DNA of 64,000 bases from an uncultured bacterium (GCA_963749445.1 CAVVMJ010000007.1:9971-73970), one strand, 5' to 3'; shown: positions 8,308-63,932, numbered from the stretch's first letter. A program made the numbers and translations. Notes: generated by a model from the sequence alone, not told the origin.

Positions 8308-8394
8308 TGACCTTCTGATAAACCTCTAAATCCTCAACATCCTTTATCATAATTAAAAAATTAAGACCGGTTTTTATTGCCTATATCCATCCAA

Positions 8395-10540: not shown

Positions 10541-10622
10541 TTGAAATTGCGAGGGCGTGCATCCGACCGAAGCAATCCCCAAAAAATAACCGGATTGCTC
10601 CGGCCACCCTCGCAATTTCATA
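10541..10622. repeat. palindromic repeat element, copy A (GAAATTGCGAGGG...CCCTCGCAATTTC)
   Basis: Terminal inverted arms plus an inner GAAGCAATCC/GGATTGCT pair. Three longer copies lie at 28142, 43438 and 48535. Confidence 0.6.
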
Positions 10623-13020: not shown

Positions 13021-13046
13021 GATGATATTATACATCAACTTCTACT

Positions 13047-13123
13047 AAATACGAAAGTGGCTAAAAATACTAAACTTATGGTTTATAAGTTTAGTATTTT
13101 TAGATAATTTAGTATTTAGTAAA
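13047..13123. repeat. long AT-rich nested hairpin (TACTAAATAC...GTATTTAGTA, inner perfect 19-bp stem)
   Basis: CTAAAAATACTAAACTTAT-GGTT-ATAAGTTTAGTATTTTTAG nested within TACTAAATAC/GTATTTAGTA. Related elements lie at 29371, 58565 and 62882. Confidence 0.6.
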
Positions 13124-25276: not shown

Positions 25277-25406
25277 CTTTGTTGTTTCCCTTCTCCCCCT
25301 CTGGGGGAGATGTCCCGCCTTTGGCGGGACAGAGAGGGTGCATTAAATAAAATTAATCGATTATAATTTCTCGCCTCCCTATTTTACCATTTTTTTACCC
25401 GCCTTA

Positions 25407-28141: not shown

Positions 28142-28272
28142 AGTGGTGAAACTCCCGCAACTCTAAAATGAATTTGCGAGGAGCCAGGGCTTTATCTGGC
28201 GACGAAGCAATCCCAAAATTTGAATGGGATTGCCGCGCCCCTCTCTGCATCGGGGCTCGCAAATTCTGTTAT
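28142..28272. repeat. palindromic repeat element, copy B
   Basis: GAATTTGCGAGGAGCC...GAAGCAATCCC-loop-GGGATTGCCGCGCCCC...GCTCGCAAATTC. Confidence 0.65.
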
Positions 28273-34424: not shown

Positions 34425-34485
34425 CCACCTCCCCCGCCTGCGGCGGGTACTCCTCCTATAATAGGAGGAGGGGCTCCGCGGTTGT
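34425..34485. repeat. GC hairpin plus GCTCCGCGGTT motif element
   Basis: CTCCTCCTAT-AAT-AGGAGGAGGGGCTCCGCGGTT. Similar elements lie at 55085-55127 and 60245-60292. Confidence 0.55.
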
Positions 34486-35853: not shown

Positions 35854-36555
35854 TCACCGCGCATTAAACAGCTTCCCCAATTTTTCCACACTCAATCCGG
35901 AAAAATCCTTTATTACCAAATCCGCCTGCCTTAAATCTTTGGCTTTATTGGTAGTAGTTATGGCCACAATTTTCATTCCTGCCCTTTGCGCCGCCTTTAT
36001 GCCATTTAAGGCATCTTCAAACACCACGCAATTTTGTGGTTTGGCTTTTATCAGCTTTGCGGCTTTTAAGAAAACTTCCGGGTTGGGCTTGCCTTTTTTG
36101 ACCTGGGATGAATCTATAATTTTGTCAAAAAACCTTCCCGTTCCCGTTTTGCCCAAAACGAATTTGATATTTTCCGCTGGCGCGGACGTAGCCATGGCAA
36201 CTTTAATCCGATTTTTCTTCAGGGTCGATAAAAAACCGACCAATCCTTTCACCGGTTTTATAAACTTTTTGTAGCTGTCCCTATAGAATTTTTCCTTTTC
36301 GCCGGCCAGACGGGCAATTTCCCGCGCGGAAACTTTTTCTTTTGCGATAATTTTGACGTCTTCTTCCGCCCGCCTGCCGTTGATTCTGGTTTTAAAAAAT
36401 TTCCAGGTCAGCCTTACCCCAAACTTTGCAGCTATAAACTGCCAGGACTTAAAATGATACTTTGTGTTATTAACCAACACGCCGTCCATGTCAAATATCG
36501 CGGCAAATTCTATTTTTTTATCTTGATGAGTCCCAGTTTCTTTTTTCTTGGCCAT
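35854..36555 (-). CDS. HAD-IA family hydrolase (beta-phosphoglucomutase-like)
   Basis: Motif I FDMDGVLVNN and motif IV-like FEDALNGIKAAQRAG. Confidence 0.65.
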   Translation of the reverse strand: MAKKKETGTHQDKKIEFAAIFDMDGVLVNNTKYHFKSWQFIAAKFGVRLTWKFFKTRINGRRAEEDVKIIAKEKVSAREIARLAGEKEKFYRDSYKKFIKPVKGLVGFLSTLKKNRIKVAMATSAPAENIKFVLGKTGTGRFFDKIIDSSQVKKGKPNPEVFLKAAKLIKAKPQNCVVFEDALNGIKAAQRAGMKIVAITTTNKAKDLRQADLVIKDFSGLSVEKLGKLFNAR

Positions 36556-36755
36556 TTTTTTACTTCCATTTCCCGCCGCAACGCCTTGCTTAATGTCCTA
36601 AACTTTTCCGAATAAACAATTTTCCCGCCGCCGCGGCTCCTGACATATTTGGATCCTTTGCCGCTGTTATGTAACATCAATCGCCGCGCTAAGTCTTTCG
36701 CGCTCCCGCTGTACAGCGTCCCGTCTTTGCATTTAAGGATGTAGAAATAAAACAT
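36510..36755 (-). CDS. GIY-YIG nuclease family protein (UPF0213-like)
   Basis: FYFYILKCKDGTLYSGSAKDLARRLMLHNSGKGSKY. Confidence 0.6.
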   Translation of the reverse strand: MFYFYILKCKDGTLYSGSAKDLARRLMLHNSGKGSKYVRSRGGGKIVYSEKFRTLSKALRREMEVKKWPRKKKLGLIKIKK

Positions 36756-36757
36756 AA

Positions 36758-37093
36758 CTAGCCAATAGACAAGAGCACGATGGATATTACCGCCAACACC
36801 ATTCCAGAAATGCCAACAATGCTCAATTTTTCTTTAAACACCGCAATGCCGATTAAAACCGTGGCAAACAAACTTAATACCGACCAAATGGTGCCCGCTA
36901 TGGAAAGCGAATTTTTTTGCAAAATCGCCGGCAGCCAGGCCAGCGTCCCTAAAATATAGGCTAAAAGGATCAGCAGCGCCAGCGTAAACCTTGGGCCGAG
37001 GGCGAACTTTTTTGAAAAAAATTCGCCGACGGCAAAAAACACAGCCGACAGCACCAGCCAATATAAATAATTTATTGATAACAAAAATTTCAT
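36758..37093 (-). CDS. small multidrug resistance-like (SMR/DMT) four-TM membrane protein
   Basis: 111 aa with four hydrophobic helices. Confidence 0.45.
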   Translation of the reverse strand: MKFLLSINYLYWLVLSAVFFAVGEFFSKKFALGPRFTLALLILLAYILGTLAWLPAILQKNSLSIAGTIWSVLSLFATVLIGIAVFKEKLSIVGISGMVLAVISIVLLSIG

Positions 37094-37950: not shown

Positions 37951-38718
37951 TTATATCAGGTGACTGCAAAAAGTTAGACGATGGATATCACTCAACCCGT
38001 GCCTAATAATCATTGTTCGATGAAACAACGTGCCGTAGCCTTTATGCTGGGCGAAGTTATAGATTGGATATTGCTGATGATATTTTTTCATCAAGTCATC
38101 GCGGAAAACTTTGGCCACAATGGACGCGGCGGCAACTGATAAAATTTTGTTGTCGCCGCCGACCACGGCTTCCTGGGCAAGGTTGACGCCGGGGATGGTG
38201 AACTTGCCGTCGATAAACAAAAATAGGCCGCCACCCCGACCGACGAGTGCATCCGAGGAGTGGAGGGGTCTGTTTATCTGTGTCTTTGACAGATTCCTCG
38301 ACTCGTCCGGCTGATGATGTTCCAATGCGGACTCGCTCGGAATGGAAGCTAATAAATTCTCTGCCGCCCTTTTCATCGCCAACAATGTTGCGTGGTGAAT
38401 GTTAACTCCATCAATAATTTTTTCATCCACCACCCCAATTCCCCACCAAGCGTGCTTTTTTATCGTAGACGATAATTCCTCGCGCTTCTTTGGTAATAAC
38501 AGCTTGCTATCCCTTATTCCCCGCTTCATATTCCATGTTTCAGGCTTCAAGATTACTGCCGCCGCTACTACCGGTCCGGCCAAACTTCCCCTGCCCACTT
38601 CATCGCAGCCGATAACGTAAGTATAGCCTTGTCTAAATTTTTGATTTTCGTATTTTGGAGACATAAAAAATGTGTCCATCCCGGCCGAGTGCAGCCGAGA
38701 GCCGGGATCCAGAATCAA
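37951..38718 (-). CDS. rnhB: ribonuclease HII, with a palindrome-bearing internal insertion
   Basis: YVIGCDEVGRGSLAGPVVAAAVIL active-site motif. 38250-38340 is a palindromic segment related to 57905-58030. Confidence 0.75.
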   Translation of the reverse strand: MILDPGSRLHSAGMDTFFMSPKYENQKFRQGYTYVIGCDEVGRGSLAGPVVAAAVILKPETWNMKRGIRDSKLLLPKKREELSSTIKKHAWWGIGVVDEKIIDGVNIHHATLLAMKRAAENLLASIPSESALEHHQPDESRNLSKTQINRPLHSSDALVGRGGGLFLFIDGKFTIPGVNLAQEAVVGGDNKILSVAAASIVAKVFRDDLMKKYHQQYPIYNFAQHKGYGTLFHRTMIIRHGLSDIHRLTFCSHLI

Positions 38719-38890: not shown

Positions 38891-40091
38891 CTATTGCAAT
38901 TTCGCTGATCCGAATTTTTTTGAATTTAGGTGTTTGAGCACGTTTGATTCAAAAGTAAACGTCACGCTACGTTTTTGCTGATACCTTGCCTCGGCGAAAG
39001 CTATCAATTTTTGCAGCAACTGGCCAAATTCCACTCCGCTGGCTTTCCATAAATGATGATACAGCGTGCCGGGCAAAGGATTAACCTCATTGGCAAAAAA
39101 TTTATTGGATGATTTGTCCAGCAAAAAATCCACGCGCGCGATGCCGCAGCAGCCAAGCGCGCGGTACACCTCTTTGGCTGTATTTTGAATCGCCGATGTT
39201 ACGCCCGCATCCAGCCGCGCCGGAATTATCACCCCGCCCTGCGATTTGCCCAATTGCGCGCCCCCGCCTTTTAAGTATTTTTCCTCAAAATCAAACAAAT
39301 CGGAAGCAAACGTCGATTCCTGCAAAGCTGATGCCGTCAAGTCGTCGTTACCGATAATACAACACGTCACATCCATCACATTTTCCACGCCCTCTTCCAC
39401 CAGAACCTTGTTATCATAATGCAGGGCCACCTCAACCCGGAATTCCAAATCTTTCAAGTCCTGATTTTTGACTTTGGCGATGCCAATGGACGAACCCAAA
39501 TGCACCGGCTTTACAAACAGAGGGTATTTTAATTCACTAATTCTCTTATTCACTAATTCTTTATTTCTCTCCCATTCGTTTTTAGTAAAATAAACAAATT
39601 TTGTGGTCGGGATGCCCGCCTGCCGCATCACGATTTTCGTCAGCGCCTTGTCCATGGAAACGGCGGACGACGGCACATCGCAGCCCACGTAAGGGATGCC
39701 GAACATTTCAAACAAACCCCTGGATGGTGCCGTCTTCGCCGTAAGAGCCGTGCAGCGCGGGAAACGCCAGGTCGATGGTTATTGATTTTCCCATCAGCCC
39801 TTTCTTTCTGAATACCATTTTTCCGATTGATTCTTCAAGATCCAAATAATACCGCGCGTAGGCCGGCTTGCCCTCCGTAGCTTTAGCGAAGGAGGGGTCC
39901 GTAAATAACTTCATATTGCCCAAATCCTCGCCGAGCATCCACTTACCCTGCTTGGTAATGTAAACCGGCGTCACTTGATAGCCCAAACCTTTTAGCCCGG
40001 CGATAATCAGCTGGCCGGTAATAATGGACACGTCATGCTCCGGCGATCCACTTCCAAAAAACACCCCGATATTTTTGTTCAATTTTGTCAT
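38891..40091 (-). CDS. ddl: D-alanine--D-alanine ligase, split by an apparent extra T near 39712
   Basis: The N-terminal ORF ends ...HGSYGEDGTIQGFV*. The shifted frame gives IQGLFEMFGIPYVGCDV, continuing the ATP-grasp domain. Confidence 0.75.
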
Positions 40092-40109: not shown

Positions 40110-41571
40110 TTATAAATACTGGTCTCCCCAGTCATTCTGGAACACCACCACGTCGCCAGGCTGCACGATGTTTTTTAACGACTCATGCATGTCCAGCGCC
40201 GTGTCAAACCAGACGATTTGTGGTTTGTCTCCACCCTTAGCCCTTAGCCCTATACCCTCTGCAATCCACGGCGTCGCGCTGTCCCTAATCAGTATAACCA
40301 CATCGGCCACCGCTGCCAACTGCCGGCCGATTTGCCGGTGGACTTCGGCCGTAGCGGCGCCGATTTCCACCAGACCGGGCGTAATGTAGATTTTGCGCCG
40401 GCCATTAAAGCGCGACAAAACACTTACGGCCTCGGCCGCGCCGGCCGGGTTACCGTTATAACTGTCGTCAATCACCAAAACCCCGCTGGCCGAAATTATG
40501 GGCTTCAGCCGGTGCTCCACGGCCCGGACCTGCGACAGCCCAACCTTAATGTCCACAACGCTCAACCCCAAATGTTCGCCCACGGCCATCGCCGCCACGG
40601 CCGCGCCAATGCTGTATTCGCCGAGCAAAGCCAAGGAAAACGCGCCGTGATTTTTGACATTAAAACTCCAGGCCAGCTGACTTTGGTCAAATTTTTGGTC
40701 ACTGACAAAATAATCGGTCCGACCGCCTTCGCGGCCGGAATAAAAACGCACTTCCCGGCCACCGGTATAGTCCTTAAAATGGCTCACCACCCGCTCGTCG
40801 TCGCCGTTCATAATCACCAACGCTTCCGGCTTGGCGAATTCCGCGGCTTCAAAAATCGTGGCGATGATGTTACCCAAACTGCCCATGCGCTCCAAATGCG
40901 CTTCGTTAATGCCCGTGATTATGGAAATATCCGGCCGCGCGATGTCGCACAACTCTTTAATGTCGCCGCGGTAATGCTCGCCCAGTTCCAAAATTAATAT
41001 TTTCGTGTCATCGCCGACTTTATTCAAAATAAACCGCGCAATACCCACCGGCGTATTCACGCTCTCCGGTGGGCTAAGAACTGCGTACTGTGTACTGAGC
41101 ACTGATCGCAGCACTTCACTTCACCGTAGTCTTGCCATAGCTGCCGGCTATGCCGATAATCTTTAAATCTTTCAATCTTTCAATCTTCAATCTCGCCTGT
41201 TTGGCCAATTTATTTTTGGCGTAACCGTCCAGCGGCCGAATCAAAATCAGCGCAATGCTGTACCATAAAAAATAAAGCCAAAAACCGGCTATAAAACAAA
41301 CAATCACAAAAATTTGCGCCCCGTCAGTCCCGCCAAAAACCAAAAACGAGGCCGCTGCCGGAAAAATCGCAAACAGCAAATGCAAAGCAACGGCCATAAC
41401 CATCAAAGCTTTGGCCTTGGCCGTCCACACCAGCTCTTTTCGCTGCGGCTGGTGCTTGTCCGGAAAAAATCCCTTAATCTTAAGCAATTTCCAATACCTC
41501 CCCAGCTCATAATTTTCCAGTTGGAGCAGGTAAAGTTGATATTTGATGAATTTTGGGACAAATATGTCCAT
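40110..41571 (-). CDS. murF: UDP-N-acetylmuramoyl-tripeptide--D-alanyl-D-alanine ligase, split by an apparent single-base indel near 41112-41118
   Basis: The N-terminal ORF ends IGIAGSYGKTTVK*. The next ORF continues VLRSVLST... and carries the Mur ligase middle and C-terminal domains. Confidence 0.7.
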
Positions 41572-43402: not shown

Positions 43403-43437
43403 TACAAAATTCAAATTGCAAAACTTAAAACAAGCTG

Positions 43438-43560
43438 AAATTGCGAGCCCCGATGCAGAGGGGCGCGGCAATCCCATAAAATTGACGGGATTGCTTCGCC
43501 CGCCTTCGCTGAAGCTTCGGCGGATAAATCGGATGCACTCCTCGCAATTTCTGATGGAAA
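43438..43560. repeat. palindromic repeat element, copy C (inverted orientation)
   Basis: GAAATTGCGAGCCCCGATGCAGAGGGGCGCGGCAATCCC-loop-GGGATTGCTTCGCC...CTCGCAATTTC. Confidence 0.65.
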
Positions 43561-48534: not shown

Positions 48535-48658
48535 GATGAAATTGCGAGGAGCCGAGGGCTTTTTATCTGGCGACGAAGCAATCCCGATACTTAACTGGGA
48601 TTGCCGCGCCCCTCGCTGCATCGGGGCTCGCAATTTCCGGGCATTTGGGATTTTGCAA
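48535..48658. repeat. palindromic repeat element, copy D
   Basis: GAAATTGCGAGGAGCCGAGGGC...GAAGCAATCCC-loop-GGGATTGCCGCGCCCCTCGCTGCATCGGGGCTCGCAATTTCC. Confidence 0.65.
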
Positions 48659-54996: not shown

Positions 54997-55122
54997 AATC
55001 CCGCCCCGAGCGAAGCCGAGGGGCGGGATTTTAAACAGTTAATTAGATGGCAACCAATACACCTCATCTGTCGCTCCGATGCAGTCGCGACATCTTCCCC
55101 TCCAGGGGAAGAGGCTCCGCGG

Positions 55123-56694
55123 TTAAACCCCGCGCAATAATTCTATTTTGGCGCCAATCTTGCGCAGGCGCGAGACGAGGTCTTCGTAGCCGCGGTTGAT
55201 GGAGTAGGCGTTGCGGAGGATGGAGGTGCCTTTGGCCGCCAGCATGGCGACCAGAATGTTGGCGGCCGGGCGCAGGGCGGGAGGACAAATGACTTCTGCG
55301 CCGCGGAGCTCGGTCGGCCCTTCAATGTATACCCGATGGGCATCGGCCAAAATTATATTGGCGCGCAGCTTGGTTAATTCCATATAGTAAATTGCGCGGT
55401 TTTCGTAAACCCAGTCGTGGATTAAAGTTGTGCCCTTGGCCTGCGTGGCAATGGGCACAAAAAACGGCAAATTGTCTATATTTATGCCCAATCCGCCGGG
55501 CAACGGGTGCAATTTTTCCTCCAGCGCCTTGAGTTTGGAAGGAAAAGCTTGCACATCGGCCAAATTGGTTATGCCGTTATAACTTTTGTACTGTTTGATA
55601 ATTTTATAGCGGAAACCCATTTTTTCCAGCTTTAAAAGTTCAAGCTCCAAAAAATCAATCGGGCAACGCTCAATCGTCAGCGAAGAATTCGTCGTGGCCG
55701 CGATGGCCAAAAACAGCATTGACTCAATCGGGTCTTCGCTTAAATAATAACTGACGGTTTGGTTGATATGCGGTTTGCCGTGGACAACAAGAGTGGAAGA
55801 ACCGACCCCGTCTATTTTTACGCCCAGGGCAATAAGGAAATGGCACAAATCCCGCACCATATAATTGGCGCTGGCCATTTTGATGATGGTAATGCCGGGC
55901 AAGCGCGCGGCAGCCATTAAGGCATTTTCCGTAACCGTATCACCGGTTTCATAAAGTACGATTTCGGAGGTTTTCCCGCCGGAGGCGGATCCGCCTTTGG
56001 CGGAAAGTCCAACCGATGTGACCTGGTAATTATCATGGGTGGTTTTAACTTTAACGCCCAGTTTTTCCAAAGCGAACAAATGCGGCCGCACCGTGCGCGC
56101 GCCAAGGCGGCAGCCGCCGGGGTGGGGAAGGGCAAAATTTTGCAGCAGATGAACCAGCGGCCCAAGCAGCATCAGCACGCTGCGCGTTTTGGCCGCGGAC
56201 TCCACGTCCATAGCCTTTAAATTCAGCCTTTTTGGCGGAATAATTTGCAAATCCCGGTCTTTCCATTTCACATCCACGCCAATGCTTAAAAGAACTTCCA
56301 CCATCCGATAGACCTCTTCAATCTTGGGAACTCTTTTGAGTATGGTCTTGCCCGAATTGAGCAGGCTCGCGCACAGCAGAGCCACGGCCGCGTTTTTAGA
56401 GGTGTTGGTGGTTACTTTGCCGGAAAGTTTAAACCCACCTTCAATTTTAAAATTAACGCTTTGGCCGCCCAAAGTAATAATTTCCCGCCCCAGCACGGCG
56501 CTGATTTTAGCCAGGGTTTCCGTTGTTAAATTCTGCAAACCGTTTTCCATGCGGGCCACGGCCGATTGGGAAGTTTTCAGCAGCACGGCAAACTCCGCCT
56601 GGGTCAAGCCCTTTTGTTCGCGCGTCTGGCTAATAAACCGGCCGATTCTGGCCTGTTCTTGGGCGATATTTTTAGTTAAAGCCACATTTGGCAT
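55123..56694 (-). CDS. murA: UDP-N-acetylglucosamine 1-carboxyvinyltransferase with N-terminal XRE-type HTH domain fusion
   Basis: The N-terminal 70 aa (GLTQAEFAVLLKTSQSAVARMENGLQNLTTETLAKISAVLG) are HTH_XRE. The rest is an EPT-family enzyme. There is an internal GGSASGG insertion at 55970-56000. Confidence 0.75.
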   Translation of the reverse strand: MPNVALTKNIAQEQARIGRFISQTREQKGLTQAEFAVLLKTSQSAVARMENGLQNLTTETLAKISAVLGREIITLGGQSVNFKIEGGFKLSGKVTTNTSKNAAVALLCASLLNSGKTILKRVPKIEEVYRMVEVLLSIGVDVKWKDRDLQIIPPKRLNLKAMDVESAAKTRSVLMLLGPLVHLLQNFALPHPGGCRLGARTVRPHLFALEKLGVKVKTTHDNYQVTSVGLSAKGGSASGGKTSEIVLYETGDTVTENALMAAARLPGITIIKMASANYMVRDLCHFLIALGVKIDGVGSSTLVVHGKPHINQTVSYYLSEDPIESMLFLAIAATTNSSLTIERCPIDFLELELLKLEKMGFRYKIIKQYKSYNGITNLADVQAFPSKLKALEEKLHPLPGGLGINIDNLPFFVPIATQAKGTTLIHDWVYENRAIYYMELTKLRANIILADAHRVYIEGPTELRGAEVICPPALRPAANILVAMLAAKGTSILRNAYSINRGYEDLVSRLRKIGAKIELLRGV

Positions 56695-56904
56695 ATTTTA
56701 TCCGCCTAAATTTTATATTTAATAGAATAAAATTAAACTCAATTATCCACCCTAACTTATTGGGTGTTTGATAATAAACAACCAAAATTTTGCGGATTTA
56801 TATCACCTATGATATTTATTGCATTCTAATTATAGCAAATCTAACTAATTCCGTCAAAATATACCATATATGACAAAACCCGCACGTAGGTGCGGGTTAA
56901 AGTT

Positions 56905-57005
56905 TTAAGTTATAAGTTGTGGCGGCCGGTACGGTCATAGGGATATGGTTTTAGGCGACTTACAACCTATTACCTACAACTATACTGGCCGCCATACCTT
57001 ATAAC
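56905..57005. repeat. long inverted repeat (22-nt arms GTTATAAGTTGTGGCGGCCGGTA / ACTGGCCGCCATACCTTATAAC) upstream of murA
   Basis: Arms separated by about 50 nt in the 320-bp intergenic region. Confidence 0.5.
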
Positions 57006-57017
57006 CTATTCCCCATC

Positions 57018-57227
57018 TTAAAAATGAAACAGCTTCCCAAACCAGTGTTCCAAATACTGCGAGCGCTGGTTAGTAAAATAAACCACTAACAACGCAGCAA
57101 GATAAATCAAATTCAAATACAACACCTTCCATAAATCATGCCGGATAATCCGGTATTCTGCCGCGTGCATTGAGCCGCCGGAAACGGTTACGTTTTCCTG
57201 GACGATTTTTTTGTGCTTTTTGGACAT
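57018..57227 (-). CDS. hypothetical small membrane protein
   Basis: About 69 aa with one TM helix. Confidence 0.3.
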   Translation of the reverse strand: MSKKHKKIVQENVTVSGGSMHAAEYRIIRHDLWKVLYLNLIYLAALLVVYFTNQRSQYLEHWFGKLFHF

Positions 57228-57392
57228 AAATAGTAGCGTTCCCAAATATACAAATCAACACAAATATACAAATTACTGACAGTGCTATAGATTTGTATAT
57301 TTGTTAAAATTTGTATATTTGCGATTACTACAATTATAGCATTTGAAAGGATTTGAACGCAAGCCGCCGGAGTGCTACAATACCAAAAGCTT

Positions 57393-57881
57393 ATGACTTC
57401 ACCGCTTCTCAGTTTAGCCGCTTTAATCATCGGCATTTTGGCTTTAACCGTGGCCATTGTCGGCTGGTTAAGTTTGCGTTCCTTTAACCGCCTGCGGCAA
57501 ACGTTTTTTACCGGCAGCGGGGGAGCCAACCTGGAGCATATCCTCAATAGCCTGGCCGCAGATTTCCGGCAACTGCAAAGCCAACAAACGGCCCTGGAGC
57601 AGACCTTATTAAAGCTCAAAAAAGATTTCGGTTTCGCCGTGCAGAAAATCGGCGTGGTGCGCTTTAATCCGTTCGCGGACGGCGGCGGCAATTTTAGTTT
57701 CACTCTGGCCCTGCTCAACGGCCACGACACCGGGGTGGTCATAACCAGCATGCACGGCCGCGAGCAGAACCGAATTTATACCAAAAAAATCCAAGACGGA
57801 AAAAGCGAAACAGCGCTGACCGAAGAAGAACAGCAGGCCATTGAACGCGCGGTTGACCAGCATCGCAAACAGATGGAATAA
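57393..57881 (+). CDS. DUF4446 family protein
   Basis: N-terminal TM helix. GVVRFNPFADGGGNFSFTLALLNGHDTGVVITSMHGREQNRIYTK matches the DUF4446 core. Confidence 0.5.
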   Translation: MTSPLLSLAALIIGILALTVAIVGWLSLRSFNRLRQTFFTGSGGANLEHILNSLAADFRQLQSQQTALEQTLLKLKKDFGFAVQKIGVVRFNPFADGGGNFSFTLALLNGHDTGVVITSMHGREQNRIYTKKIQDGKSETALTEEEQQAIERAVDQHRKQME

Positions 57882-57904
57882 TATTTCTCCACCCTTGGAT
57901 TCCA

Positions 57905-58030
57905 TCCCGAGCGAGTCCTCAATGTACTCTCAAGACGAGCCGAGGGATCTATCCAATATAGCAGATCCCTCCACTCCCCCTCGACTCGTCCGCTTCGCGG
58001 TGCTCGCTCGGGGTCGGTCGGGATGGACAC
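57905..58030. repeat. multi-stem palindromic element (CCATCCCGA...TCGGGATGG outer stem, GAGGGATCT...AGATCCCTC inner stem)
   Basis: Nested inverted repeats. Shares CCTCGACTCGTCCG and GACGAG..CCGAGG with the insertion inside rnhB. Confidence 0.5.
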
Positions 58031-58118
58031 TTATCTAGACAAGTTATGAAGTTGTTAAATCAAAAAGGTAAATAAAACAAAACCGGTTATCAGCAATTAA
58101 TCATAGAAAGGAAAAACA

Positions 58119-58562
58119 ATGGACAAAACGTTGAGTGACGAAAATTTAAGCCAGCAGGCCGAGACCGTGGTCGGGCCGTCCGTAAAAATTCAGGGCGACC
58201 TGAATTCCGAAGGCAACATCCGCATAGAAGGCCAGGTCAGCGGCAAAGTCAAAACCAGCCAAAGCGTGTTCGTCAACCAGGGCGCCAAAATCGCGGCCGA
58301 CGTTGTGGCCGGCAACGCCGTCATCGGCGGAGATGTCCAGGGAAATCTTAAAATTTCCGGGCACTTAATTCTCCAAACCACCGCCAAAATTACCGGCGAC
58401 GTCACTTGCTCAATTCTGCGCGTGGAAGACGGCGCCCAGTTTACCGGCAAATGCGCCATGAACGGCGCCGTGGCGGGAGCCCAACCGCCCACCAACGGCC
58501 ATACTGAACGCGGCGCCAGCAAAAAAACCGGCCGTGAGGAAATTTTGGAGATGGAAGAATAG
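58119..58562 (+). CDS. bactofilin family cytoskeletal protein
   Basis: Repetitive beta-helix pattern (GNIRIEGQVSGKVKTSQSVFVNQGAKIAADVVAGNAVIGGDVQGNLKISG...). Confidence 0.65.
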   Translation: MDKTLSDENLSQQAETVVGPSVKIQGDLNSEGNIRIEGQVSGKVKTSQSVFVNQGAKIAADVVAGNAVIGGDVQGNLKISGHLILQTTAKITGDVTCSILRVEDGAQFTGKCAMNGAVAGAQPPTNGHTERGASKKTGREEILEMEE

Positions 58563-58564
58563 AT

Positions 58565-58660
58565 AGCGATACTAATATACGAATGCATACGAATGATACT
58601 AATAATACGAATTCGTATTATTCGTTTCATTAGTATCAATTAGTATACTGGTATCTTTTA
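58565..58660. terminator. AT-rich palindromic hairpin element centred on GAATTC
   Basis: ATACTAATAATACGAA-TTCGTATTATT..ATTAGTAT with TACGAAT/ACTAAT repeats, downstream of the bactofilin gene. Confidence 0.35.
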
Positions 58661-58662
58661 AT

Positions 58663-59505
58663 ATGTACTACTATATTCTCGACCAAGGCAATCTGCCTCT
58701 TGAAAAATACGAGAAGCTGCAAACCCAACTTTCGGGGCTGTTGGCCGAGTTTAAAATTTCCGGCGAAAACGCCCGCGTCACGCCGCTGCGCAGCATCACC
58801 GATTTGGTGGATACCGCCAGCCAGCGCGGCACCAACACTTTGGTGGCCTGCGGTTCGGACGATACCTTTAACGTCATGCTGGCCGCGCTCAAAGGCCGCG
58901 ATTTTACTTTGGGTTTTATTCCCTTGGACGAAAATTCCATTTTGAGCACAATCTTAGGCATCCCAGATTTGTTTACCGGCGTCAAAACCATTGCCGCGCG
59001 CCGCATTGAAAAAATTGATTTGGCCAGAATTTCCGGCAGCTACTTTATCAGTTTTTTGGAATTTGGCGTTATGAGCCAGCGCCTGCAATCCGCCGGGCTG
59101 TGGCAGTCGTTAAAACTTCTGTCCAGCGAATCCAAAAACTTTACCATCCGGATTGATGATTCTTACACCGTCAACTTAAGCGGGCTCGGGGGGCTCGTGG
59201 CCAACATCCGTTCCAACTCCGGCAAAGACCAAAAAATCGCCAACCCCACGGACGGCAATTTGGATTTATTGATGCTGGAACGGCTGAAAAAAACCCAAGT
59301 TTTGGCTTACCGCCGCAGCATTGTGGACGGCCTCTTGGAAAAAGTGCCCAAGACCACGGTCATCAAATGCAAAAAAATCCAATTTTTGGAGCCGCGCGGT
59401 TTCCCCTTAACTATGCTTGGCCGCATGGTGACCAAATTCCCCGCCACCGTGGAAATTATTCCCAACCGGCTTAAAATGATTGTGGGGAAAAACCGGACAT
59501 TTTAA
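58663..59505 (+). CDS. diacylglycerol-kinase catalytic-domain family protein with a degenerate GGDGT motif
   Basis: TLVACGSDDTFNVMLAAL occupies the position of GGDGT. YegS-like length. Confidence 0.35.
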   Translation: MYYYILDQGNLPLEKYEKLQTQLSGLLAEFKISGENARVTPLRSITDLVDTASQRGTNTLVACGSDDTFNVMLAALKGRDFTLGFIPLDENSILSTILGIPDLFTGVKTIAARRIEKIDLARISGSYFISFLEFGVMSQRLQSAGLWQSLKLLSSESKNFTIRIDDSYTVNLSGLGGLVANIRSNSGKDQKIANPTDGNLDLLMLERLKKTQVLAYRRSIVDGLLEKVPKTTVIKCKKIQFLEPRGFPLTMLGRMVTKFPATVEIIPNRLKMIVGKNRTF

Positions 59506-59726
59506 GTTCACGGATACGCGGATTGAATCAGATATCGCGGATGTAGCGGCACGCCGTGGCGTGCCGCTTTGTTTACGATCTCACCCGCCCGGTGTAGTGT
59601 GCCGATTTATCGGCTCTGACGTTACCCGCTGTAATACGGGCCCGTGGCCTGCTTTTTTTATCCAAAACAAAACCGGCGGGGCTCGCTTGCGAACCAACCG
59701 CCGGTTTCATTATCTAAACATAATTT

Positions 59727-59962
59727 TTAATGTATTGGCGGGCCGTCAGGCGGATTCTTGCCGTTGGTAACCACAAAGCTCACGCAATCGCCCTGGTTCT
59801 TGAACGTATCGCCAAAGTCTCGCCAGTCGTCTTTCTTGCACTGGTCTTTGCTGGTCGGCACAGTCGGCGGGGGGGCGGCGTAAAATCCGCCAAAGCTGTC
59901 CCGGCGGCGACAAACAAGCTTGCCGCGGCCAGCAAAGAGGAAACAACAATTTGTTTTTTCAT
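59727..59962 (-). CDS. small secreted Cys-containing protein (needs a one-base correction in the G7/C7 run at 59869-59875)
   Basis: Signal peptide MKKQIVVSSLLAAASLFVAAGTALA. The shifted frame reads PPPPPTVPTSKDQCKKDDWRDFGDTFKNQGDCVSFVVTNGKNPPDGPPIH*. Confidence 0.3.
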
Positions 59963-60244
59963 TTTTGATTTCTTTCCGAAAAAATAATCTTTTCGACCTT
60001 TTACAATATTATATCATAGAAAAAAACCGGCAAGTTTACCCCGTACCGTCCCGACTTGTCGGAACCAGTGCGGGGTTATTCATACGTAACTATCGGAAAG
60101 CCCAAAAATCGCTTATAGCGAGCGCAAGAATTTTGACATCATTTGGGGACTGACAACCGCGGCAAACGCTTGATTTTATTAGAGTTTGCAAGTATAATCA
60201 ATGGGTTAAACATTATTTTCCCTCCAACCACCCCGTCTCGCGAA

Positions 60245-60292
60245 GCTCACCACCCCTCCTCAGCAAGGAGGGGAAGCTCCGCGGTTCAGCGA
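60245..60292. repeat. GC hairpin plus GCTCCGCGGTT motif element upstream of infB
   Basis: CCCCTCCTCAGCAAGGAGGGGAAGCTCCGCGGTT. Confidence 0.5.
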
Positions 60293-60329
60293 CATATCAG
60301 CGTCCCTATCAGCGACGTATCAGCGGAAT

Positions 60330-62249
60330 ATGAATTTATCCAGCCTCTCGTCACAATTAAATATGTCCATCCAAGACCTCCGCCTCAAAGCCAAGGAGAA
60401 GGGGTATTTTATTTCACCCAAGGCCAACAAGGTGGACAATTACGTGGCCAGAAAAATGATGGAAATTTTCGGCAAGCCGGCGCCAACTCCGTCGGGACCC
60501 AAAGAAATCAAAAAAATCAAACTGCCGGGCTTCATTAAAGTGCGCGACTTGGCCGACTTGCTCAAACTGCCCGTCACCGAAGTCATTAAAACTTTAATCA
60601 AAAACGGCGTCATGGCCACCATCAACGAAGAGGTAGATTTTGACACGGCCAGCATTGTGGCCCAGGATTTGGGTTTTGAAGTGGAAACCGAAGCCGACCA
60701 AACGCACAAAGAATTCGGCTTGGGATTCTTGCAGGAAATTTTAGCCAACGAAAAAGAAGAAAATTTAAAGCCGCGCTTTCCGATTGTCACCATAATGGGC
60801 CACGTGGACCACGGCAAAACCACGCTGCTTGATACCATCCGCAAAACTAAAGTTGCCGAAGGCGAAAGTGGGGGCATTACTCAGCACATCGGCGCCTACC
60901 GCGTGCAAAAAAACGGCAAGTGGATTACGTTTTTGGATACCCCGGGCCACGAAGCGTTTTCCGAAATGCGCGCCCGCGGCGCCAATGTTACGGACATTAT
61001 CGTGCTGGTAGTGGCCGCGGACGACGGCGTCAGGCCGCAGACTTTGGAAGTCATCAACCGCGCCAAATTTACCGAAACGCCGATGATTGTGGCCATCAAC
61101 AAAGTGGACAAGCCCGAAGCCAACGTCATTAAAGTCAAACAGGAGCTGGCCGGCGTTGGGGTTTTAACCGAAGAATGGGGTGGCAAAACCATTGCCTGCG
61201 AAATTTCCGCCAAACAGGGTTTGGGCATAGACAATCTTTTGGAAATGATTTTACTGACCGCAGAGTTGGAAAATTTACGCGCCAACCCGCAAGGCAAGAC
61301 AATCGGCACGGTCATTGAAAGCAAAATTAGCCAAGGTATGGGAGCCACGGCCACGGTGATCATCCAAAACGGCACCTTAAAAATCGGCGATATTTTTGCC
61401 GCGGGAACCGCTTTTGGCAGAATCCGGTCGCTGGAGGACGAAAAAGGCCGCAAGCTTAAAGACGCCGGCCCTTCCATCCCGGTGCAAATCTCCGGCCTGT
61501 CCGAAACGCCCAAGGCCGGCGACATTTTGCAGGTTATGGAAAATTTGGACGAGGCGCGGCAGATTGCCATGTCCGCCAAAAAAAAGGAGCAAAGCCACCG
61601 CTTTGCGCGCCACGGCCTGGCCGGGGACATAACCAGCAAAAGCTTAAATTTGGTTTTAAAGGCCGACGTGGCCGGCAGTTTGGAAGCCATTAAGCAAAGC
61701 ATTGCCAAATTAAAAAATGATGAGGTAAAAATTAATATTTTGTCCGACGGCGTGGGTGAAATAAACGAGTCCGATGTCCTGCGGGCCTCCAGCGCCAAAG
61801 CCACCGTTTTGGCGTTTCGCGTCAAGACCAATCCCAAAGCCGAAAGCCTGGCCAAACAAAGCAAGGTTACGATTGACAGCTACGAGGTTATTTACGAACT
61901 GCTCGAAGACGTAACTTCGGCGGTCATTAAAATGTTCACGCCCGAGCTGGAAAAAGTCGCCTACGGCACGGCCAAAGTTTTGGCGATTTTCCGCACGGAA
62001 AAAGGCGTAATGATCGTGGGCGGCAGCGTGCTCTCCGGCCAAATCAAAAAAAACAGCCGCATCGCGATTTTTAGAAATGACGTTGAGTTGGGTCGAGGCG
62101 AAATTATGGAACTCCAGCAAACCAAAGTCGCCGCCAAAACCATCGGCATCAACGAAGAATTCGGCATCAAACTAAAAACCCCGGTCAAAATTTTAGTCGG
62201 GGATATTTTGGAAAGCTTTGAGGAGAAAATAAAGATAAAAACTTTGTAA
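60330..62249 (+). CDS. infB: translation initiation factor IF-2
   Basis: [20 protein letters not shown] and NKVDK GTPase motifs. IF-2 C-terminal domains. Confidence 0.9.
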
Positions 62250-62311
62250 AGAAATTGGTAGAAATATGCCCCGATAAATCGGGACGAAATTTATTGAAAT
62301 TGGTTGCTGTA

Positions 62312-62340
62312 GGGGCGGGTCTAGACCCGCCCTTTTCTTT
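62312..62340 (+). terminator. intrinsic terminator (GGGGCGGGTCTAGACCCGCCC followed by TTTTCTTT)
   Basis: GC-rich perfect stem plus T-tract 60 nt downstream of infB. Confidence 0.6.
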
Positions 62341-62517
62341 GCCCGAAAACGGATTTAGCCTGCCCTTGCCCAAACTGTGGAAATTGATTATACTATGGGG
62401 CTGATATAATAAATATTGAAGCGAGATTATCTAGTTGTGCCATCCCGACCGAAGTGGATGGATCTATTATTAACAGATTCCTCGGCTCGGATGCACTCGA
62501 TCGGAATGGAATAATGT

Positions 62518-62880
62518 ATGAGACCAGTAAAAAAAGACACCAACCGCATTGCCAAGGTCAATTCGCTAATTAGGCGCGAGTTGGGACCGATTTTGTTAGT
62601 GTTTTTACAGGGGATGGAGGGATTAGTGACCATTACCAAAGCCGACACCAGCAAGGATATGAAGTGGTGCAAGGTTTGGATTTCCATTTTGGGCGGAGAT
62701 GATGATAAAATTTTAGGTTATCTTGCAAAAAATATTTACGACATCCAGGGCGAGCTGAATAAATATTTTTTCACTAAAATTATCCCGCGGATTTCCTTTC
62801 ACCTGGATACCAGCCCAAGGTACGCGCAGCATATTGATGAAGTGATACGGAAGATACACGATGAAGAAGAGACAATTTAA
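62518..62880 (+). CDS. rbfA: ribosome-binding factor A
   Basis: RIAKVNSLIRRELGPIL...VTITKADTSKDMKWCKVWISI matches the RbfA KH-like fold. Confidence 0.8.
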   Translation: MRPVKKDTNRIAKVNSLIRRELGPILLVFLQGMEGLVTITKADTSKDMKWCKVWISILGGDDDKILGYLAKNIYDIQGELNKYFFTKIIPRISFHLDTSPRYAQHIDEVIRKIHDEEETI

Positions 62881-62881
62881 G

Positions 62882-62928
62882 AATTACGGATTGCGGATTA
62901 CGAATTCGTAATGCGCAATCCGTAATTA
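62882..62928 (+). terminator. 22-bp inverted repeat ATTACGGATTGCGGATTACGAA/TTCGTAATGCGCAATCCGTAAT centred on GAATTC
   Basis: Near-perfect palindrome immediately after the rbfA stop. Confidence 0.45.
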
Positions 62929-62946
62929 ATAATTCCTATTAAGTTA

Positions 62947-63932
62947 ATGCAGCAAGATTTTATTAAAGCCAAACAACTAATTGACCAATCCCAAAACATC
63001 CTCCTGACAATGCATGAGCGGATGGACGGGGATGACGGCGGCAGCGTGCTGGCCGTTTTTCATCATTTGGCCAAAAACGGCAAGCAGGTCACCTGCGCCA
63101 TCAAAAAGGGCGTACCGCTCGCTTTGCGTTTTCTGCCCGGCAGCGAAAAAATCGCCGATGACATCAGCCATCAAAATTTTTCCGCCGAAGGCGGATCCGC
63201 CTCTGGCGGAGACTTTGATCTACTGATAATGTTCGGATGCTCTGCCAAAGACCGCTGCGGCAGCGAAGATATTATCAATTTGAACGTGCCTACGATTAAT
63301 TTTGACCACCATCCCGACAACTCCCATTTTGCCGACGTGAACGCCGTGGATCCGGCCAAATCTTCCGTGGCGGAGATAATTTATGACTTTTTCCGCTTCC
63401 ACAACTGGCCCATAACCCCCGAAGTCGCCACTTGTCTTTTGACCGGAATTATTACCGACACAGGCTCATTTATGCACGCCAACACCAAAAACTCTACGCT
63501 CAAAACCGCGGGCGAGCTGATGCGCAAAGGCGCCCAAACCAACCTTATCATTAAACACACTTCCCTGGGCAAAAATCCCCAAATTTTAAAAGCCTGGGAC
63601 AGGCTTTGGAAAACTCGCATTACGATAAAAAACACAAAATTATTTACGCTGTAATGACGGGAGAAGATTTACTCAATTTTAAAAACCTGCCGCAGGCGGC
63701 CTTTGAAGGATTCGTGGAAACGTTGAATACTTACCCGGATGCAAAGTTCGCCATGTTTTTGCGGCAGGACGGCGACGTAATTAAAGGCAGCCTGCGCTCC
63801 GACCCTTATAAAAATATTGATGTTTCCCAAATCGCCAAAGCCTTTGGCGGCGGCGGCCACAAACTGGCGGCGGGGTTTTCGCTGGCGGGAAAACTGACTA
63901 AGGACGAGGCGGGAAAATGGCGCGTAATTTAA
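62947..63932 (+). CDS. nrnA: bifunctional oligoribonuclease/PAP phosphatase NrnA (DHH-DHHA1), split by an apparent T-run frameshift near 63605
   Basis: DHH motifs (DHHP) in the first ORF and GGGGH in the second. The junction WDRLW|ENSHYDKKHKIIYAV is restored by one extra T. There is an internal GGSASGG insertion at 63180-63210. Confidence 0.7.

Follow-up and report, generated by a model that had tools for sequence, protein, structure and literature searches.

A putative ultra-short palindromic insertion element within the murA and nrnA genes of an uncultured bacterium

Bacterial REPs lie outside genes, have a GTAG motif at the 5' side, are present in tens to hundreds of copies and adjoin a RAYT gene. 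REPs and REPINs are mobilized by RAYT (Y1/HUH) transposases and no target duplication is expected, which also applies to minimal derivatives of IS200/IS605. MITEs are defined as non-autonomous elements of less than 500 bp without coding capacity of their own (PMC10969869). RPEs are described as elements of about 150 bp (100-150 bp), forming ten families and confined to Rickettsia (Ogata et al. 2000; PMC10969869). Yeast mitochondrial GC clusters, e.g. GC42, show substitutions in the loops and conservation of the stems, referred to as 'functional constraint' (PMC4478555), and double-hairpin elements of fungal mitochondria were described by Paquin, Laforest and Lang (2000), here as cited in PMC4478555. 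A prior description of the 30-bp palindrome reported below was not found in the literature and sequence libraries searched.

The window, i.e. the whole stretch of 64,000 nucleotides that was analysed, contains two near-identical 30-bp palindromes, as the original prediction had claimed. Copy 1 is read on the minus strand within murA (positions 55975-56004) and copy 2 on the plus strand within nrnA (63181-63210). The core GGCGGATCCGCC has exactly two matches in the window (55984-55995 and 63190-63201), and the 28-nt pattern CCGCCNNNGGCGGATCCGCCNNNGGCGG, with up to three mismatches allowed, matches only at 55976-56003 and 63182-63209, the expectation from shuffled sequence being 0.00. On the plus strand, the murA copy is CCCGCCGGAGGCGGATCCGCCTTTGGCGGA and the nrnA copy is TCCGCCGAAGGCGGATCCGCCTCTGGCGGA. 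The two differences previously counted between the copies are those of the plus strand; in coding orientation 3 of 30 nucleotides differ, and compared as inverted copies 29 of 31 positions are complementary. Both copies have the form TCCGCC-NNN-GGCGGA-TCCGCC-NNN-GGCGGA and share the reading frame S-A-x-G-G-S-A-x-G-G. In coding orientation the murA copy is TCC GCC AAA GGC GGA TCC GCC TCC GGC GGG, translated as SAKGGSASGG (MurA residues 231-240), and the nrnA copy is TCC GCC GAA GGC GGA TCC GCC TCT GGC GGA, translated as SAEGGSASGG. The copies lie on either side of a switch in gene orientation and GC skew at about 57-58 kb.

The assignment of the host genes as murA and nrnA agreed with Pfam domains and homologue names. 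The murA ORF (55123-56694, minus strand) is intact and matches MurA entries in PDB. It contains the domains EPSP_synthase (3.9e-42) and HTH_3, the HTH domain being N-terminal, and its homologues carry the name UDP-N-acetylglucosamine 1-carboxyvinyltransferase. The second host gene (62947-63932, plus strand) encodes an NrnA-like phosphoesterase with DHH and DHHA1 domains and homologues named NrnA; it is present as two ORFs, 62947-63654 and 63606-63932. Alignment indicated that the gene was divided through loss of 1 nt from a run of G near 63590, GGG compared to GGGG in the orthologues. This frameshift was absent from the original prediction.

Alignment to orthologues bore out the suggestion that both segments are insertions. 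Among 120 close homologues of MurA only that of the window is filled, and the other 119 lack the insert, which is placed between Leu and Lys, the difference being exactly 10 amino acids. Intact empty sites (TTG|CAG and TTG|AAA) were found in the DNA of three murA orthologues, compared to which the window allele is exactly 30 bp longer and has no target duplication. At the NrnA site, 118 of 120 homologues show a clean gap of 12 amino acids, and the closest orthologue (85% identical) is without the insert. The filled nrnA allele is 36 bp (12 amino acids) longer, AAT TTT (30 bp) GAC TTT GAT as compared to GAT TTT GAC. From this comparison of filled and empty alleles, AATTTT on the left flank of copy 2 (63175-63180, plus strand) could be either T-rich target sequence or the left half of a 6-bp target duplication that has since decayed. 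The extra Asp-Phe codons on the right, GACTTT (63211-63216, plus strand), which match AATTTT at four of six positions, may be the right copy of this duplication. The second filled NrnA, P0125 (nrnA of locus L122), has the identical 30 bp at the same site, followed by GATTTC where the window has GACTTT. Another NrnA homologue has a copy of the palindrome at a different site, and three of five syntenic relatives retain an nrnA copy, at two different sites.

The same peptide at this position in distant lineages had been proposed as a sign of ancestral sequence, and P0125, only 68% identical, is such a case. It belongs, however, to a different clade amid empty alleles, and the shared insert therefore does not make the peptide ancestral. 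P0125 and its relative P0361 (at least 90% identical) are separated by a loop transition. That SA(K/E)GGSASGG is ancestral, or a Gly/Ser-rich low-complexity peptide which arose independently in both genes, could also appeal to the internally duplicated SAxGG unit, but is hardly credible given the clean gaps of 10 and 12 amino acids in nearly all homologues, the DNA identity at all synonymous positions across phyla and the occurrence of the same DNA in non-coding sequence and in two other frames. This reading was rejected on the orthologue alignments of MurA and NrnA, by which both copies in the window are judged to be true insertions. Mapping onto MurA structures supported the idea of a tolerated loop. 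In the AlphaFold model, strands 222-226 and 242-246 are separated by a coil that includes residues 231-240, for which pLDDT is below 50, and the aligned MurA structure from PDB has a gap at the position of the insert. MurA and NrnA would gain a surface loop of 10-12 residues, with no sign of a benefit to the host.

In genomes the palindrome matched at least 119 loci and in metagenomes at least 120, compared to a chance expectation of about 0.07, our own estimate for a 22-base pattern. The 28-nt core was thus found at no fewer than 239 further loci, in unrelated genes and many phyla. Host proteins include RpoB, RpoC, tRNA synthetases, TsaD, a release factor and an amylase; AspRS has the insert at two sites and PheT contains two copies. 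TsaD, CysRS, Rpe and FolD are 10 amino acids longer than their homologues, and the inserts in TsaD and CysRS are exactly 30 bp. About 60% of the copies are within ORFs of at least 200 amino acids, and the others include copies in intergenic spacers. The copies are distributed over unrelated host genes, without a regional preference in the general set. The 64-kb window has two copies, and at least 1-4 copies per MAG were seen among the matches listed, numbers that appear low next to those usual for classical REP or MITE families. Dispersal of the proposed miniature mobile palindrome was thereby confirmed, and mobility itself is what we infer.

All 80 genome records among the matches listed are MAGs, about half of them Patescibacteria and the remainder Omnitrophota, PVC phyla, Ignavibacteriota, Chloroflexota and others. 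This would fit an artefact of metagenome assemblies, either an assembly error or a BamHI-containing linker or adaptor, as would the GGATCC at the centre of the element and the appearance of GGSASGG in the literature searched as a synthetic linker only. Such an origin is nevertheless very unlikely. The flanks are colinear with those of orthologues, with nothing lost and the frame kept, the biases in frame and orientation are of biological origin, and loops diverge and expand along gene families. Furthermore, the matches originate in many laboratories, as judged from record names, and the same-site nrnA insert was assembled independently in separate projects, in the window (NCBI/ENA) and in L122 (JGI).

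The reading frame of the copies was far from random in long ORFs. In ORFs of at least 200 amino acids, frame counts (Ser/Ala/Gly frame against the other two) were 62/6/5 and 63/3/8, corresponding to use of the Ser/Ala/Gly frame by 85% of the copies, as compared to 6/9/6 and 7/12/5 in short ORFs. The orientation giving Ser was observed 72 times and that giving Phe/Leu/Tyr 19 times (p=2e-8). Statistically, these biases imply translation of the insert and show that selection on the peptide has filtered the copies, and the expectation that either orientation gives the same kind of peptide was upheld. Identical DNA is also present outside coding sequence and in both of the remaining frames. The element is 10 codons long and its stems have no stop codon in any frame, which together with the flexible-loop peptide explains its tolerance even in essential enzymes.

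The element is palindromic around GGATCC, as noted previously, but a pair of adjoining 15-nt hairpins, each with a 6-bp stem and a 3-nt loop, describes it better than one simple palindrome. The 15-bp arms, of GC-rich consensus TCCGCC-RRA-GGCGGA, are inverted repeats of each other except for two loop bases. When both strands of both copies were folded as single-stranded DNA, the double hairpin was the predicted minimum-energy structure in three of the four cases (-11.7 to -12.8 kcal/mol, z -2.5 to -3.7; -12.8 kcal/mol and z about -3.5 for the nrnA copy), and the plus strand of the murA copy was predicted to fold instead as one long hairpin (-12.5 kcal/mol). The loops are mostly RRA/TYY and vary independently of one another, whereas the stems are fixed. 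In copies ascertained via protein homology and not via the DNA pattern, synonymous variation was seen in 0 of 8 stem and 16 of 19 flank codon columns (p=7e-5), and the only synonymous site that is free, at the third position of loop 2, is variable. Stems are identical across phyla, including all synonymous positions. Along gene families the loops diverge and expand in multiples of 3, and degenerate and partly deleted copies persist within otherwise intact genes. Conservation of the resident copies far exceeds that of neutral DNA, which was unexpected and had not been predicted by a simple picture of a junk insert.

Since this conservation is unlike that of decaying junk, a function may exist. 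The double hairpin could be a cis-element kept in place by selection, e.g. a site at which a conserved protein with affinity for DNA or RNA binds or is loaded, or a structure in the mRNA modulating translation, and the coding-frame pattern would then merely reflect avoidance of damage to the host protein. The invariant synonymous positions of the stems next to variable flanks and a variable free loop position, the identity of the stems across phyla, the few copies per genome, the retention of an nrnA copy at two sites in the syntenic relatives and the location of the window copies around the orientation and GC-skew switch are all in favour of a cis-element. Even so it is considered rather unlikely, because the closest relatives are without copies and compensation is not evident, the copies are scattered over unrelated genes with no preferred region, and decayed copies persist in intact genes. 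Rfam covariance models gave no match at the gathering score, only sub-threshold matches to generic hairpins (E at least 0.4). In addition, template-switch mutagenesis at quasi-palindromes, studied by Ripley and the Lovett laboratory, reportedly corrects the arms of imperfect palindromes against each other, and such correction could keep the stems constant even if they had no function. If acting on the element, it would explain invariant stems beside free loops. It is a mutational process and not an element family, however, and leaves insertion at new sites unexplained.

The junctions follow the pattern tTy^rAa, with a T-rich left and an A-rich right flank. T is present at position -2 in 88% and A at position +31 in 79% of the copies, and both in 69-74%. 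Direct repeats of at least 5 bp flank 17 of 120 and 19 of 122 copies, compared to 3-4 expected, and five loci have perfect abutting repeats of 6-10 bp. Most copies have no target duplication and a minority have direct repeats of variable length (5-10 bp), which is not the pattern of a classical DDE transposase. The symmetrical conservation of both flanks likewise does not fit the one-sided target of the IS200/IS605 type. Of the protein families encoded next to the element, none was shared by more than 5 of 121 loci. A phmmer search with RAYT and IS200 TnpA queries gave just one IS200-like ORF among about 250 loci, and the ends of this tnpA are unrelated to the element. Small GIY-YIG genes were located at most 415 nt away in only 4 loci, and an autonomous IS with ends matching the inverted repeats was not found in about 1.8 Mb of flanking DNA. 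Altogether, no mobilising enzyme, consistent target duplication or excision event was observed among the loci examined.

A solute-binding protein family of Omnitrophota comprises 31 filled and 89 empty alleles, with an insert of exactly 30 bp and no target duplication. In the tree, filled alleles are interleaved with empty ones, with a Fitch minimum of 26 changes, and a rare GCA loop is common to the family. Together with the identity of the NrnA inserts in two distant clades, this interleaving requires recombination, precise loss or site-specific re-insertion. The element might lack transposition of its own and spread solely as an allele, either by nuclease-driven homing into empty sites of orthologues or by homologous recombination, e.g. 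following the uptake of DNA. The many kinds of host gene would then go back to very old and rare founding events. Same-site copies in orthologues of FolD, KsgA and the solute-binding protein, with flanks just 67-84% identical, are also consistent with this. Spread as an allele only is improbable, since the codons immediately adjoining the element differ among filled alleles, indicating that the flanks were not co-converted, unlike in normal recombination or homing. The hundreds of different host sites, with one gene family occupied at two sites and one gene containing two copies, would still have to be reached, and perfect young target duplications exist.

Taken together, the copies are probably a previously undescribed, ultra-short (30 bp), GC-rich and non-autonomous palindromic insertion element made up of two inverted hairpin arms only. 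A discrete 30-bp block, occasionally with a flanking duplication of 5-10 bp, appears at T-rich/A-rich junctions in unrelated genes and spacers, as seen at the loci compared. As no gene travels with it, insertion might be catalysed in trans, or by replication or repair acting on extruded hairpins. According to the statistics above, insertions land in any frame and either orientation, and the survivors in genes mostly encode S-A-x-G-G-S-A-x-G-G with Ser, not Phe, at the second loop codon. A resident copy can persist for long with invariant stems while loops mutate and expand; arm-to-arm template-switch correction is the likeliest non-adaptive cause of this invariance, and selection on the hairpin is an alternative. 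The element would move horizontally between lineages and phyla, and recombination or precise loss would reshuffle filled and empty alleles.

The element resembles prokaryotic MITEs in being small and non-autonomous, with terminal inverted repeats, stem-loops and direct repeats at some copies (PMC10969869). Unlike MITEs it has nothing between the inverted repeats, is GC-rich and not AT-rich, is far below the usual MITE sizes and has no target duplication of fixed length. With REPs, REPINs and minimal IS200/IS605 derivatives it shares short GC-rich hairpins, sometimes paired, for which no target duplication is expected. Structure is conserved above the sequence of the loops, suggesting that the hairpins are recognized in single-stranded form. 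In contrast to REPs it is mostly intragenic, has TTy/rAA on both sides, is low in copy number and has neither a 5' GTAG nor a linked RAYT or other Y1 gene, and its jointly conserved flanks differ from the one-sided left target of IS200/IS605. Mitochondrial GC clusters and double-hairpin elements are likewise short GC-rich hairpins in AT-richer context, with conserved stems, variable loops and short or absent target duplications, and presence/absence polymorphism among relatives is a further common feature. They are organellar, mostly intergenic, 42 nt long and have an AG target, whereas the present element is bacterial, 30 nt long, mostly within protein-coding genes and has a target of TT|AA type; membership in the GC clusters was excluded by the bacterial chromosome and by the sequence. 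No Rickettsia record was among the 80 genome matches listed, and the element differs from RPEs in its length of 30 bp, its single sequence type, its presence in uncultured bacteria of many phyla, its 10-residue Ser/Ala/Gly loop and the lack of any sequence relation. Like RPEs, it is palindromic, non-autonomous and inserted in-frame into unrelated housekeeping genes, where it is translated with the host protein as an extra peptide at positions that the fold can accommodate. By this analogy, the element would best be read as RPE-like in effect.

The 12-mer GGCGGATCCGCC occurs exactly twice within the 64-kb window, at 55984-55995 and 63190-63201. A scan with the pattern CCGCCNNNGGCGGATCCGCCNNNGGCGG, allowing up to 3 mismatches, matched within the window only 55976-56003 and 63182-63209; shuffled sequences gave an expectation of 0.00 matches, which rules out a chance origin of the pair. 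A repeat finder returned the two sites as a 31-nt inverted pair with 94% complementarity. Inspection of the sequence showed the layout TCCGCC-NNN-GGCGGA-TCCGCC-NNN-GGCGGA at both sites, i.e. two abutting 15-nt hairpins that jointly form a near-perfect 30-bp palindrome centred on GGATCC. Folded as single-stranded DNA, the nrnA copy formed the double hairpin on both strands and the murA copy on its coding strand (-11.7 to -12.8 kcal/mol, z -2.5 to -3.7); one long hairpin was preferred for the plus strand of the murA copy. The first copy (55975-56004) lies in an ORF for an HTH-fused MurA (55123-56694, minus strand). The second (63181-63210) lies in nrnA, where the DHH half and the DHHA1 half of the protein are encoded by two plus-strand ORFs (62947-63654 and 63606-63932). 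Both copies are in the same frame relative to the gene and encode the peptides SAKGGSASGG and SAEGGSASGG; GLSAKGGSASGGK is an example of a peptide expected from a translated copy. The original prediction of near-identical palindromes in frame in murA and nrnA was correct as judged by exact match, pattern scan, repeat finder and direct reading.

At about position 63590, nrnA has GGG where orthologues have GGGG, and this 1-nt deletion in a G run, absent from the original prediction, results in the two ORFs. Adjacent gene fragments were also observed for ddl (38891-40091), a Mur ligase (40110-41571) and a solute-binding protein (11006-12024). The apparent frame shifts in these four genes suggest homopolymer errors in the assembly; the split genes reflect either such errors or several pseudogenes. 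Such errors do not extend to the two palindromes, where the reading frames are intact.

Among the closest 120 MurA homologues (67-81% identical), the element was found only in the window protein, and in all the others the alignment shows a clean gap of 10 residues, preceded by a conserved Leu and followed by Lys/Arg/Gln. The empty site was intact in the DNA of three orthologues, GGT TTG/CAG, AAA TTG/AAA and GAT GTC/CGG (slash, insertion site). The window gene reads GGA CTT-30 bp-AAA, which is an exact 30-bp insertion without target duplication. In an AlphaFold model of the window MurA (mean pLDDT 84.6), residues 231-240 are part of a coil that joins strands 222-226 and 242-246, and pLDDT falls below 50 for residues 235-238. 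The best PDB MurA has a gap at the insert position in the alignment; the coil, the low pLDDT and the gap support the proposed surface loop. In the MurA homologue P0044, this same beta-hairpin loop contains an unrelated insert of 17 residues (SGKSSKEFSMAQGSNAS), which shows that it is generally permissive.

The NrnA site was empty in the closest orthologue, P0122 (85% identical), and in 117 others of the 120 homologues compared. The filled allele is 12 residues longer and reads AAT TTT-30 bp-GAC TTT GAT versus GAT TTT GAC, the extra sequence beyond the 30 bp being either a decayed 6-bp duplication or six added bases. Identical 30 bp were present at the same site in P0125 (68% identical, JGI contig L122), and a close relative of P0125 in the same 90%-identity cluster differs solely by a G-to-A change in loop 1, the 3-nt loop of the first hairpin. 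P0150 (contig L125) has a further copy at a different NrnA site, again between CTT and AAA. In a quick neighbour-joining tree, the window NrnA was placed beside the empty P0122, and P0125 in a distant clade next to empty sequences. A co-conversion tract around the NrnA copy was considered and rejected: the 13 identical bases upstream largely correspond to the common ancestral H-Q-N-F context. That the segment is an insertion and not an ancestral peptide was confirmed by the orthologue gaps in both proteins and by identity at synonymous sites across phyla, and convergence was rejected on the same two observations. An artefact was rejected too: the flanks are colinear, and different projects independently recovered one and the same allele.

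The dispersal of the palindrome was borne out by a search of genome and metagenome collections. At least 119 loci were found in a set with one genome per species and at least 120 in JGI metagenomes, both counts being lower bounds; by our own estimate, about 0.07 chance matches are expected in 596 Gb for 22 specified bases. Only 2 loci were found in 2.9 million viral contigs (IMG/VR), and the plasmids (PLSDB) and phages (INPHARED) of cultured organisms gave partial BLAST matches alone, at a chance level of E ≥0.3, which argues against a phage or plasmid vector. All 80 genome records among the matches listed were MAGs. According to the taxonomic labels in the sequence records, about half of those listed belong to Patescibacteria/CPR (Saccharibacteria, Doudnabacteria, Kaiserbacteria, many Parcubacteria and Microgenomates groups). 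The remainder comprise Omnitrophota, Kiritimatiellae, Verrucomicrobiota, Lentisphaerae, Planctomycetales, Ignavibacteriota (1.6-Mb contigs), Chloroflexota, Desulfotomaculaceae, Deltaproteobacteria and 'Gammaproteobacteria'.

Among the host genes, Pfam confirmed TsaD, ribulose-phosphate epimerase, a class-1 release factor, RpoB, RpoC and an alpha-amylase. It also confirmed CysRS, in which the element is located just before the KMSKS loop, AspRS, in which it occupies two different sites in two MAGs, and PheRS beta, which has two copies within one gene. Wherever the loci included a homologue, the element stood out against it as an extra block, of exactly 10 residues in the cleanest cases. Three different Ignavibacteria proteins (L031 6022, L075 2839 and L045 391) have the element at the same position of a C-terminal ...F/../..SG(V/I)YFY domain, which to us resembles a type IX secretion sorting domain. 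The palindrome heads a longer repeat of about 190 bp in one Kiritimatiellae MAG (L006 4588 and 6409, L053 7326); this repeat starts with CATAGGAATTTT, the 30 bp and ACAATCCGTCTTTGTTGTCATTCCGAGCG and ends in a terminator-like hairpin; shorter flank similarity to this repeat was seen at L003 4485 and in a Verrucomicrobia MAG (L029 676).

Across copies, the stems are TCCGCC/GGCGGA, and the outward-reading strand mostly has RRA in the loops (AAA, AGA, GGA, GAA). Variation in one loop is almost independent of that in the other, and only 24 of 128 copies have perfectly complementary loops, which by our own estimate is close to independent loop choice and argues against recent inverted duplication of a single hairpin. 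Two positions to the left of the element, 88% of copies have T, and two positions to the right, 79% have A; both are present in 69-74%, and the empty MurA and solute-binding protein sites indicate that this T-rich/A-rich context at least partly pre-exists in the target. Direct repeats of at least 5 bp flank 17 of 120 and 19 of 122 copies, where 3-4 are expected at random or context-matched positions. In five copies the repeats are perfect and abut the element (6, 6, 7, 7 and 10 bp), and most copies have no flanking direct repeat. The element does not resemble an intrinsic terminator: a T run precedes and an A run follows the palindrome on both strands, which is the wrong order. A known RNA family was likewise rejected, as Rfam searches of the whole window at gathering score and of both sites at E ≤10 returned generic sub-threshold hairpins only. 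Single hairpins CCCGCCnnnGGCGGR with common flanks (gagatRY...acagagagg) at 4953-4967 and 25314-25328 resemble half of the element in a different conserved context; a third, with other flanks, is found at 34433.

The reading frame of the element was strongly biased in long ORFs. In ORFs of at least 200 aa, the Ser/Ala/Gly frame (frame 0) and the two other frames were used 62, 6 and 5 times in the genome set and 63, 3 and 8 times in the metagenome set; the corresponding numbers for ORFs below 100 aa were 6, 9 and 6, and 7, 12 and 5. The two other frames encode PPxADPPxAE and RRRRIRLxRK. Because the loops break the symmetry of the palindrome, the encoded loop residues depend on the orientation: of the coding copies in frame 0, 72 were in the orientation giving Ser at the second loop codon versus 19 in that giving Phe/Leu/Tyr (p=2e-8). 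These frame and orientation biases imply that the element is translated, and that selection retains those insertions, or variants that arose from them later, whose peptide is small, polar and flexible. Removal of the element by mRNA splicing is contradicted by the same biases and by loop expansions in multiples of three. The results fit an element neutral enough in one frame for persistence even in essential genes.

For FolD, KsgA, a solute-binding protein and NrnA, orthologous pairs were found that have the element at the same site and flanks only 67-84% identical. The stems in these pairs were identical and the loops differed at 0-4 of 6 positions. Since the pairs had been found by the DNA pattern itself, a separate test free of this bias was performed by protein search with the Omnitrophota solute-binding protein of locus L084, resulting in 120 homologues of 70-84% identity. 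The site was empty in 89 (GKKI/KAANMQGL) and 31 had an insert, all at one site. About 10 inserts were SAAGGSASGG, about 10 had an enlarged loop 1 (SATNRGGSASGG), others had loop 2 enlarged too (SATNRGGSAVARESEGG), up to 29 residues, and seven were visibly decayed or in part deleted. Starting from 3 nt each, the loops of this family have reached 9 nt (loop 1) and at least 18 nt (loop 2) with the stems intact. Loop 2 of L249 (P0257, with P0261 noted alongside) is 18 nt long (GTAGCTCGAGAGAGCGAA) and itself a small hairpin, and that of P0320 encodes about 19 residues, which points to the hairpin loops as hot spots of further insertion.

At the DNA level, the canonical stem codons TCC GCC / GGC GGA were present in five of six homology-ascertained copies compared. 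Synonymous differences occurred in 0 of 8 stem codon columns, but in 16 of 19 flank columns with an invariant amino acid (Fisher p=7e-5), and the third base of loop 2, the sole unconstrained synonymous site, varied (C, T, G). Resident copies are thus unexpectedly conserved in their stems at the DNA level. Most canonical copies of the family have the rare GCA loop in common, so the family goes back to one founding insertion and not to several independent hits by elements of the general pool. On the tree, alleles with and without the insert were nevertheless interleaved, with a Fitch minimum of 26 changes on a poorly resolved quick neighbour-joining tree, and the codons adjoining the element differed between alleles, which shows that the flanks were not co-converted. 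Arm-to-arm template-switch correction is known for quasi-palindromes, and the stem conservation may be non-adaptive and arise in this way. That it reflects a function of the element is in our judgement unlikely.

No recurring neighbour family was present in more than 5 loci when 2,458 ORFs around 121 loci were clustered all-against-all. A single IS200-like tnpA was located near the CysS copy in L069, and its ends lack TCCGCC hairpins, which argues against an IS200/RAYT link. After removal of matches to the element-encoded peptide PPEADPP, an HMM search for GIY-YIG nucleases left 11 genes, four of which have the element 0-415 nt upstream at unrelated loci (L003, L027, L116, L228). A small GIY-YIG nuclease gene is also present in the window (36513-36833, minus strand), and another in the related contig L125 (1998-2249). 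These small genes are weak candidates for a trans-acting nuclease. A regional, origin-proximal preference was rejected: when neighbouring genes of the window were compared with all loci by tblastn, this neighbourhood was not enriched. The two palindromes lie on opposite sides of a strand switch at about 57000-58100, where genes are almost all on the minus strand to the left and on the plus strand to the right and the negative GC skew flattens. A replication origin or a simple divergent operon boundary would fit this region.

Other repeats were also observed in the window. A family of about 110-130 nt (TTCCATYCCGAGCGAGTCC...GACGAGYCGAGGRATCT...CCCTCCACTCC) is located at 57895-58030, in the spacer between the DUF4446 and bactofilin genes. 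Its second copy (38225-38350, 74% identical) is in frame inside rnhB (37951-38718, minus strand), as an insert of about 40 residues (LASIPSESAL...GRGGG) splitting the RNase HII domain match. A 76-nt intergenic repeat with the hairpin CGAAGCAATCCC...GGGATTGC followed by CGCCCCTC..GCATCGGGGCTCGCAA has two copies of 91% identity, one inverted copy and one partial copy (28191-28266, 48562-48637, 43414-43501 and 10568-10605). GC-rich hairpins of variable sequence followed by the fixed motif GCTCCGCGGTT occur at 34449-34483, 55090-55124 and 60252-60286, one directly downstream of murA and one upstream of infB. Long AT-rich intergenic palindromes with the words TACGAAT, ATACTAA and ATTTGTATA (13043-13121, 57229-57335, 58568-58655 and 62877-62932) could be bidirectional terminators, promoters or protein-binding sites. 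Three tandem paralogous genes at 5061-9978 have T4SS-pilin domains and repeated 187-nt segments.

Taken as a whole, the data fit an insertion element that is palindromic and non-autonomous, its mobility being inferred from its distribution. Such an element would reach new sites at T/A-rich junctions as a precise 30-bp unit, would be gained, lost or exchanged often enough for polymorphism between close relatives, and would cross phylum boundaries. The hairpin arms, the fixed stems and the free loops suggest that the element is recognised in a folded form, as a single strand or a cruciform. The symmetric flanks and occasional variable duplications fit neither IS200/IS605-type nor DDE-type transposition, and the element may equally well be inserted when breaks with staggered or blunt ends are replicated or repaired. 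A more speculative reading, which we regard as somewhat doubtful, is that the element is an actively maintained unit and not passive junk. It would then be either the smallest known substrate of a putative cross-phylum hairpin-specific insertion or homing enzyme, or a conserved protein-binding DNA or RNA site; either way, the loops would be growth points through which a 10-residue linker becomes longer new protein loops.

If real, and undescribed as the searches suggest, this element, made up solely of inverted repeats, would be shorter than any other mobile-type element known from bacteria, and among the very few living mainly inside essential protein-coding genes. The identity of the stems across phyla would mean either that the element often moves horizontally between uncultured bacteria, many of them ultra-small or episymbiotic, or that a trans-acting activity is widely shared. 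Conservation of resident copies would raise the testable question of whether the palindrome is kept by selection or by self-templated correction. The element would also be a natural demonstration of the positions at which enzymes such as MurA, RpoB/C, tRNA synthetases and TsaD tolerate a 10-residue flexible loop, its loop expansion a possible source of new protein loops, and its presence or absence a ready marker for strain-level typing in metagenomes.

A full-text literature search on the sequence, the peptide and CPR/Patescibacteria palindromes or MITEs found no prior description, only cloning primers, synthetic linkers and unrelated papers. The element differs from classical MITEs in being GC-rich and without a fixed duplication, and no parent IS was found in the loci searched; from REP/REPIN sequences it differs in being intragenic and without GTAG or a RAYT. 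Rickettsia palindromic elements (RPEs) are about 150 bp long, inserted in frame in unrelated genes and confined to Rickettsia (summarised in PMC10969869). The present element is alike in effect but differs in size, host and sequence, and would extend the RPE phenomenon to Patescibacteria (CPR), Omnitrophota, PVC phyla, Ignavibacteriota and others. Its form and its pattern of evolution are similar to those of the GC clusters of yeast mitochondria (such as GC42, PMC4478555) and the double-hairpin elements of fungal mitochondria, which have conserved stems, variable loops and a mechanism that is not established (PMC4478555). Given the literature result and the differences from MITEs, REP/REPIN and RPEs, it was classed with the selfish palindromes tolerated inside genes and not as an entirely new kind, its notable features being minimal size, cross-phylum spread and DNA-level constraint on resident copies.
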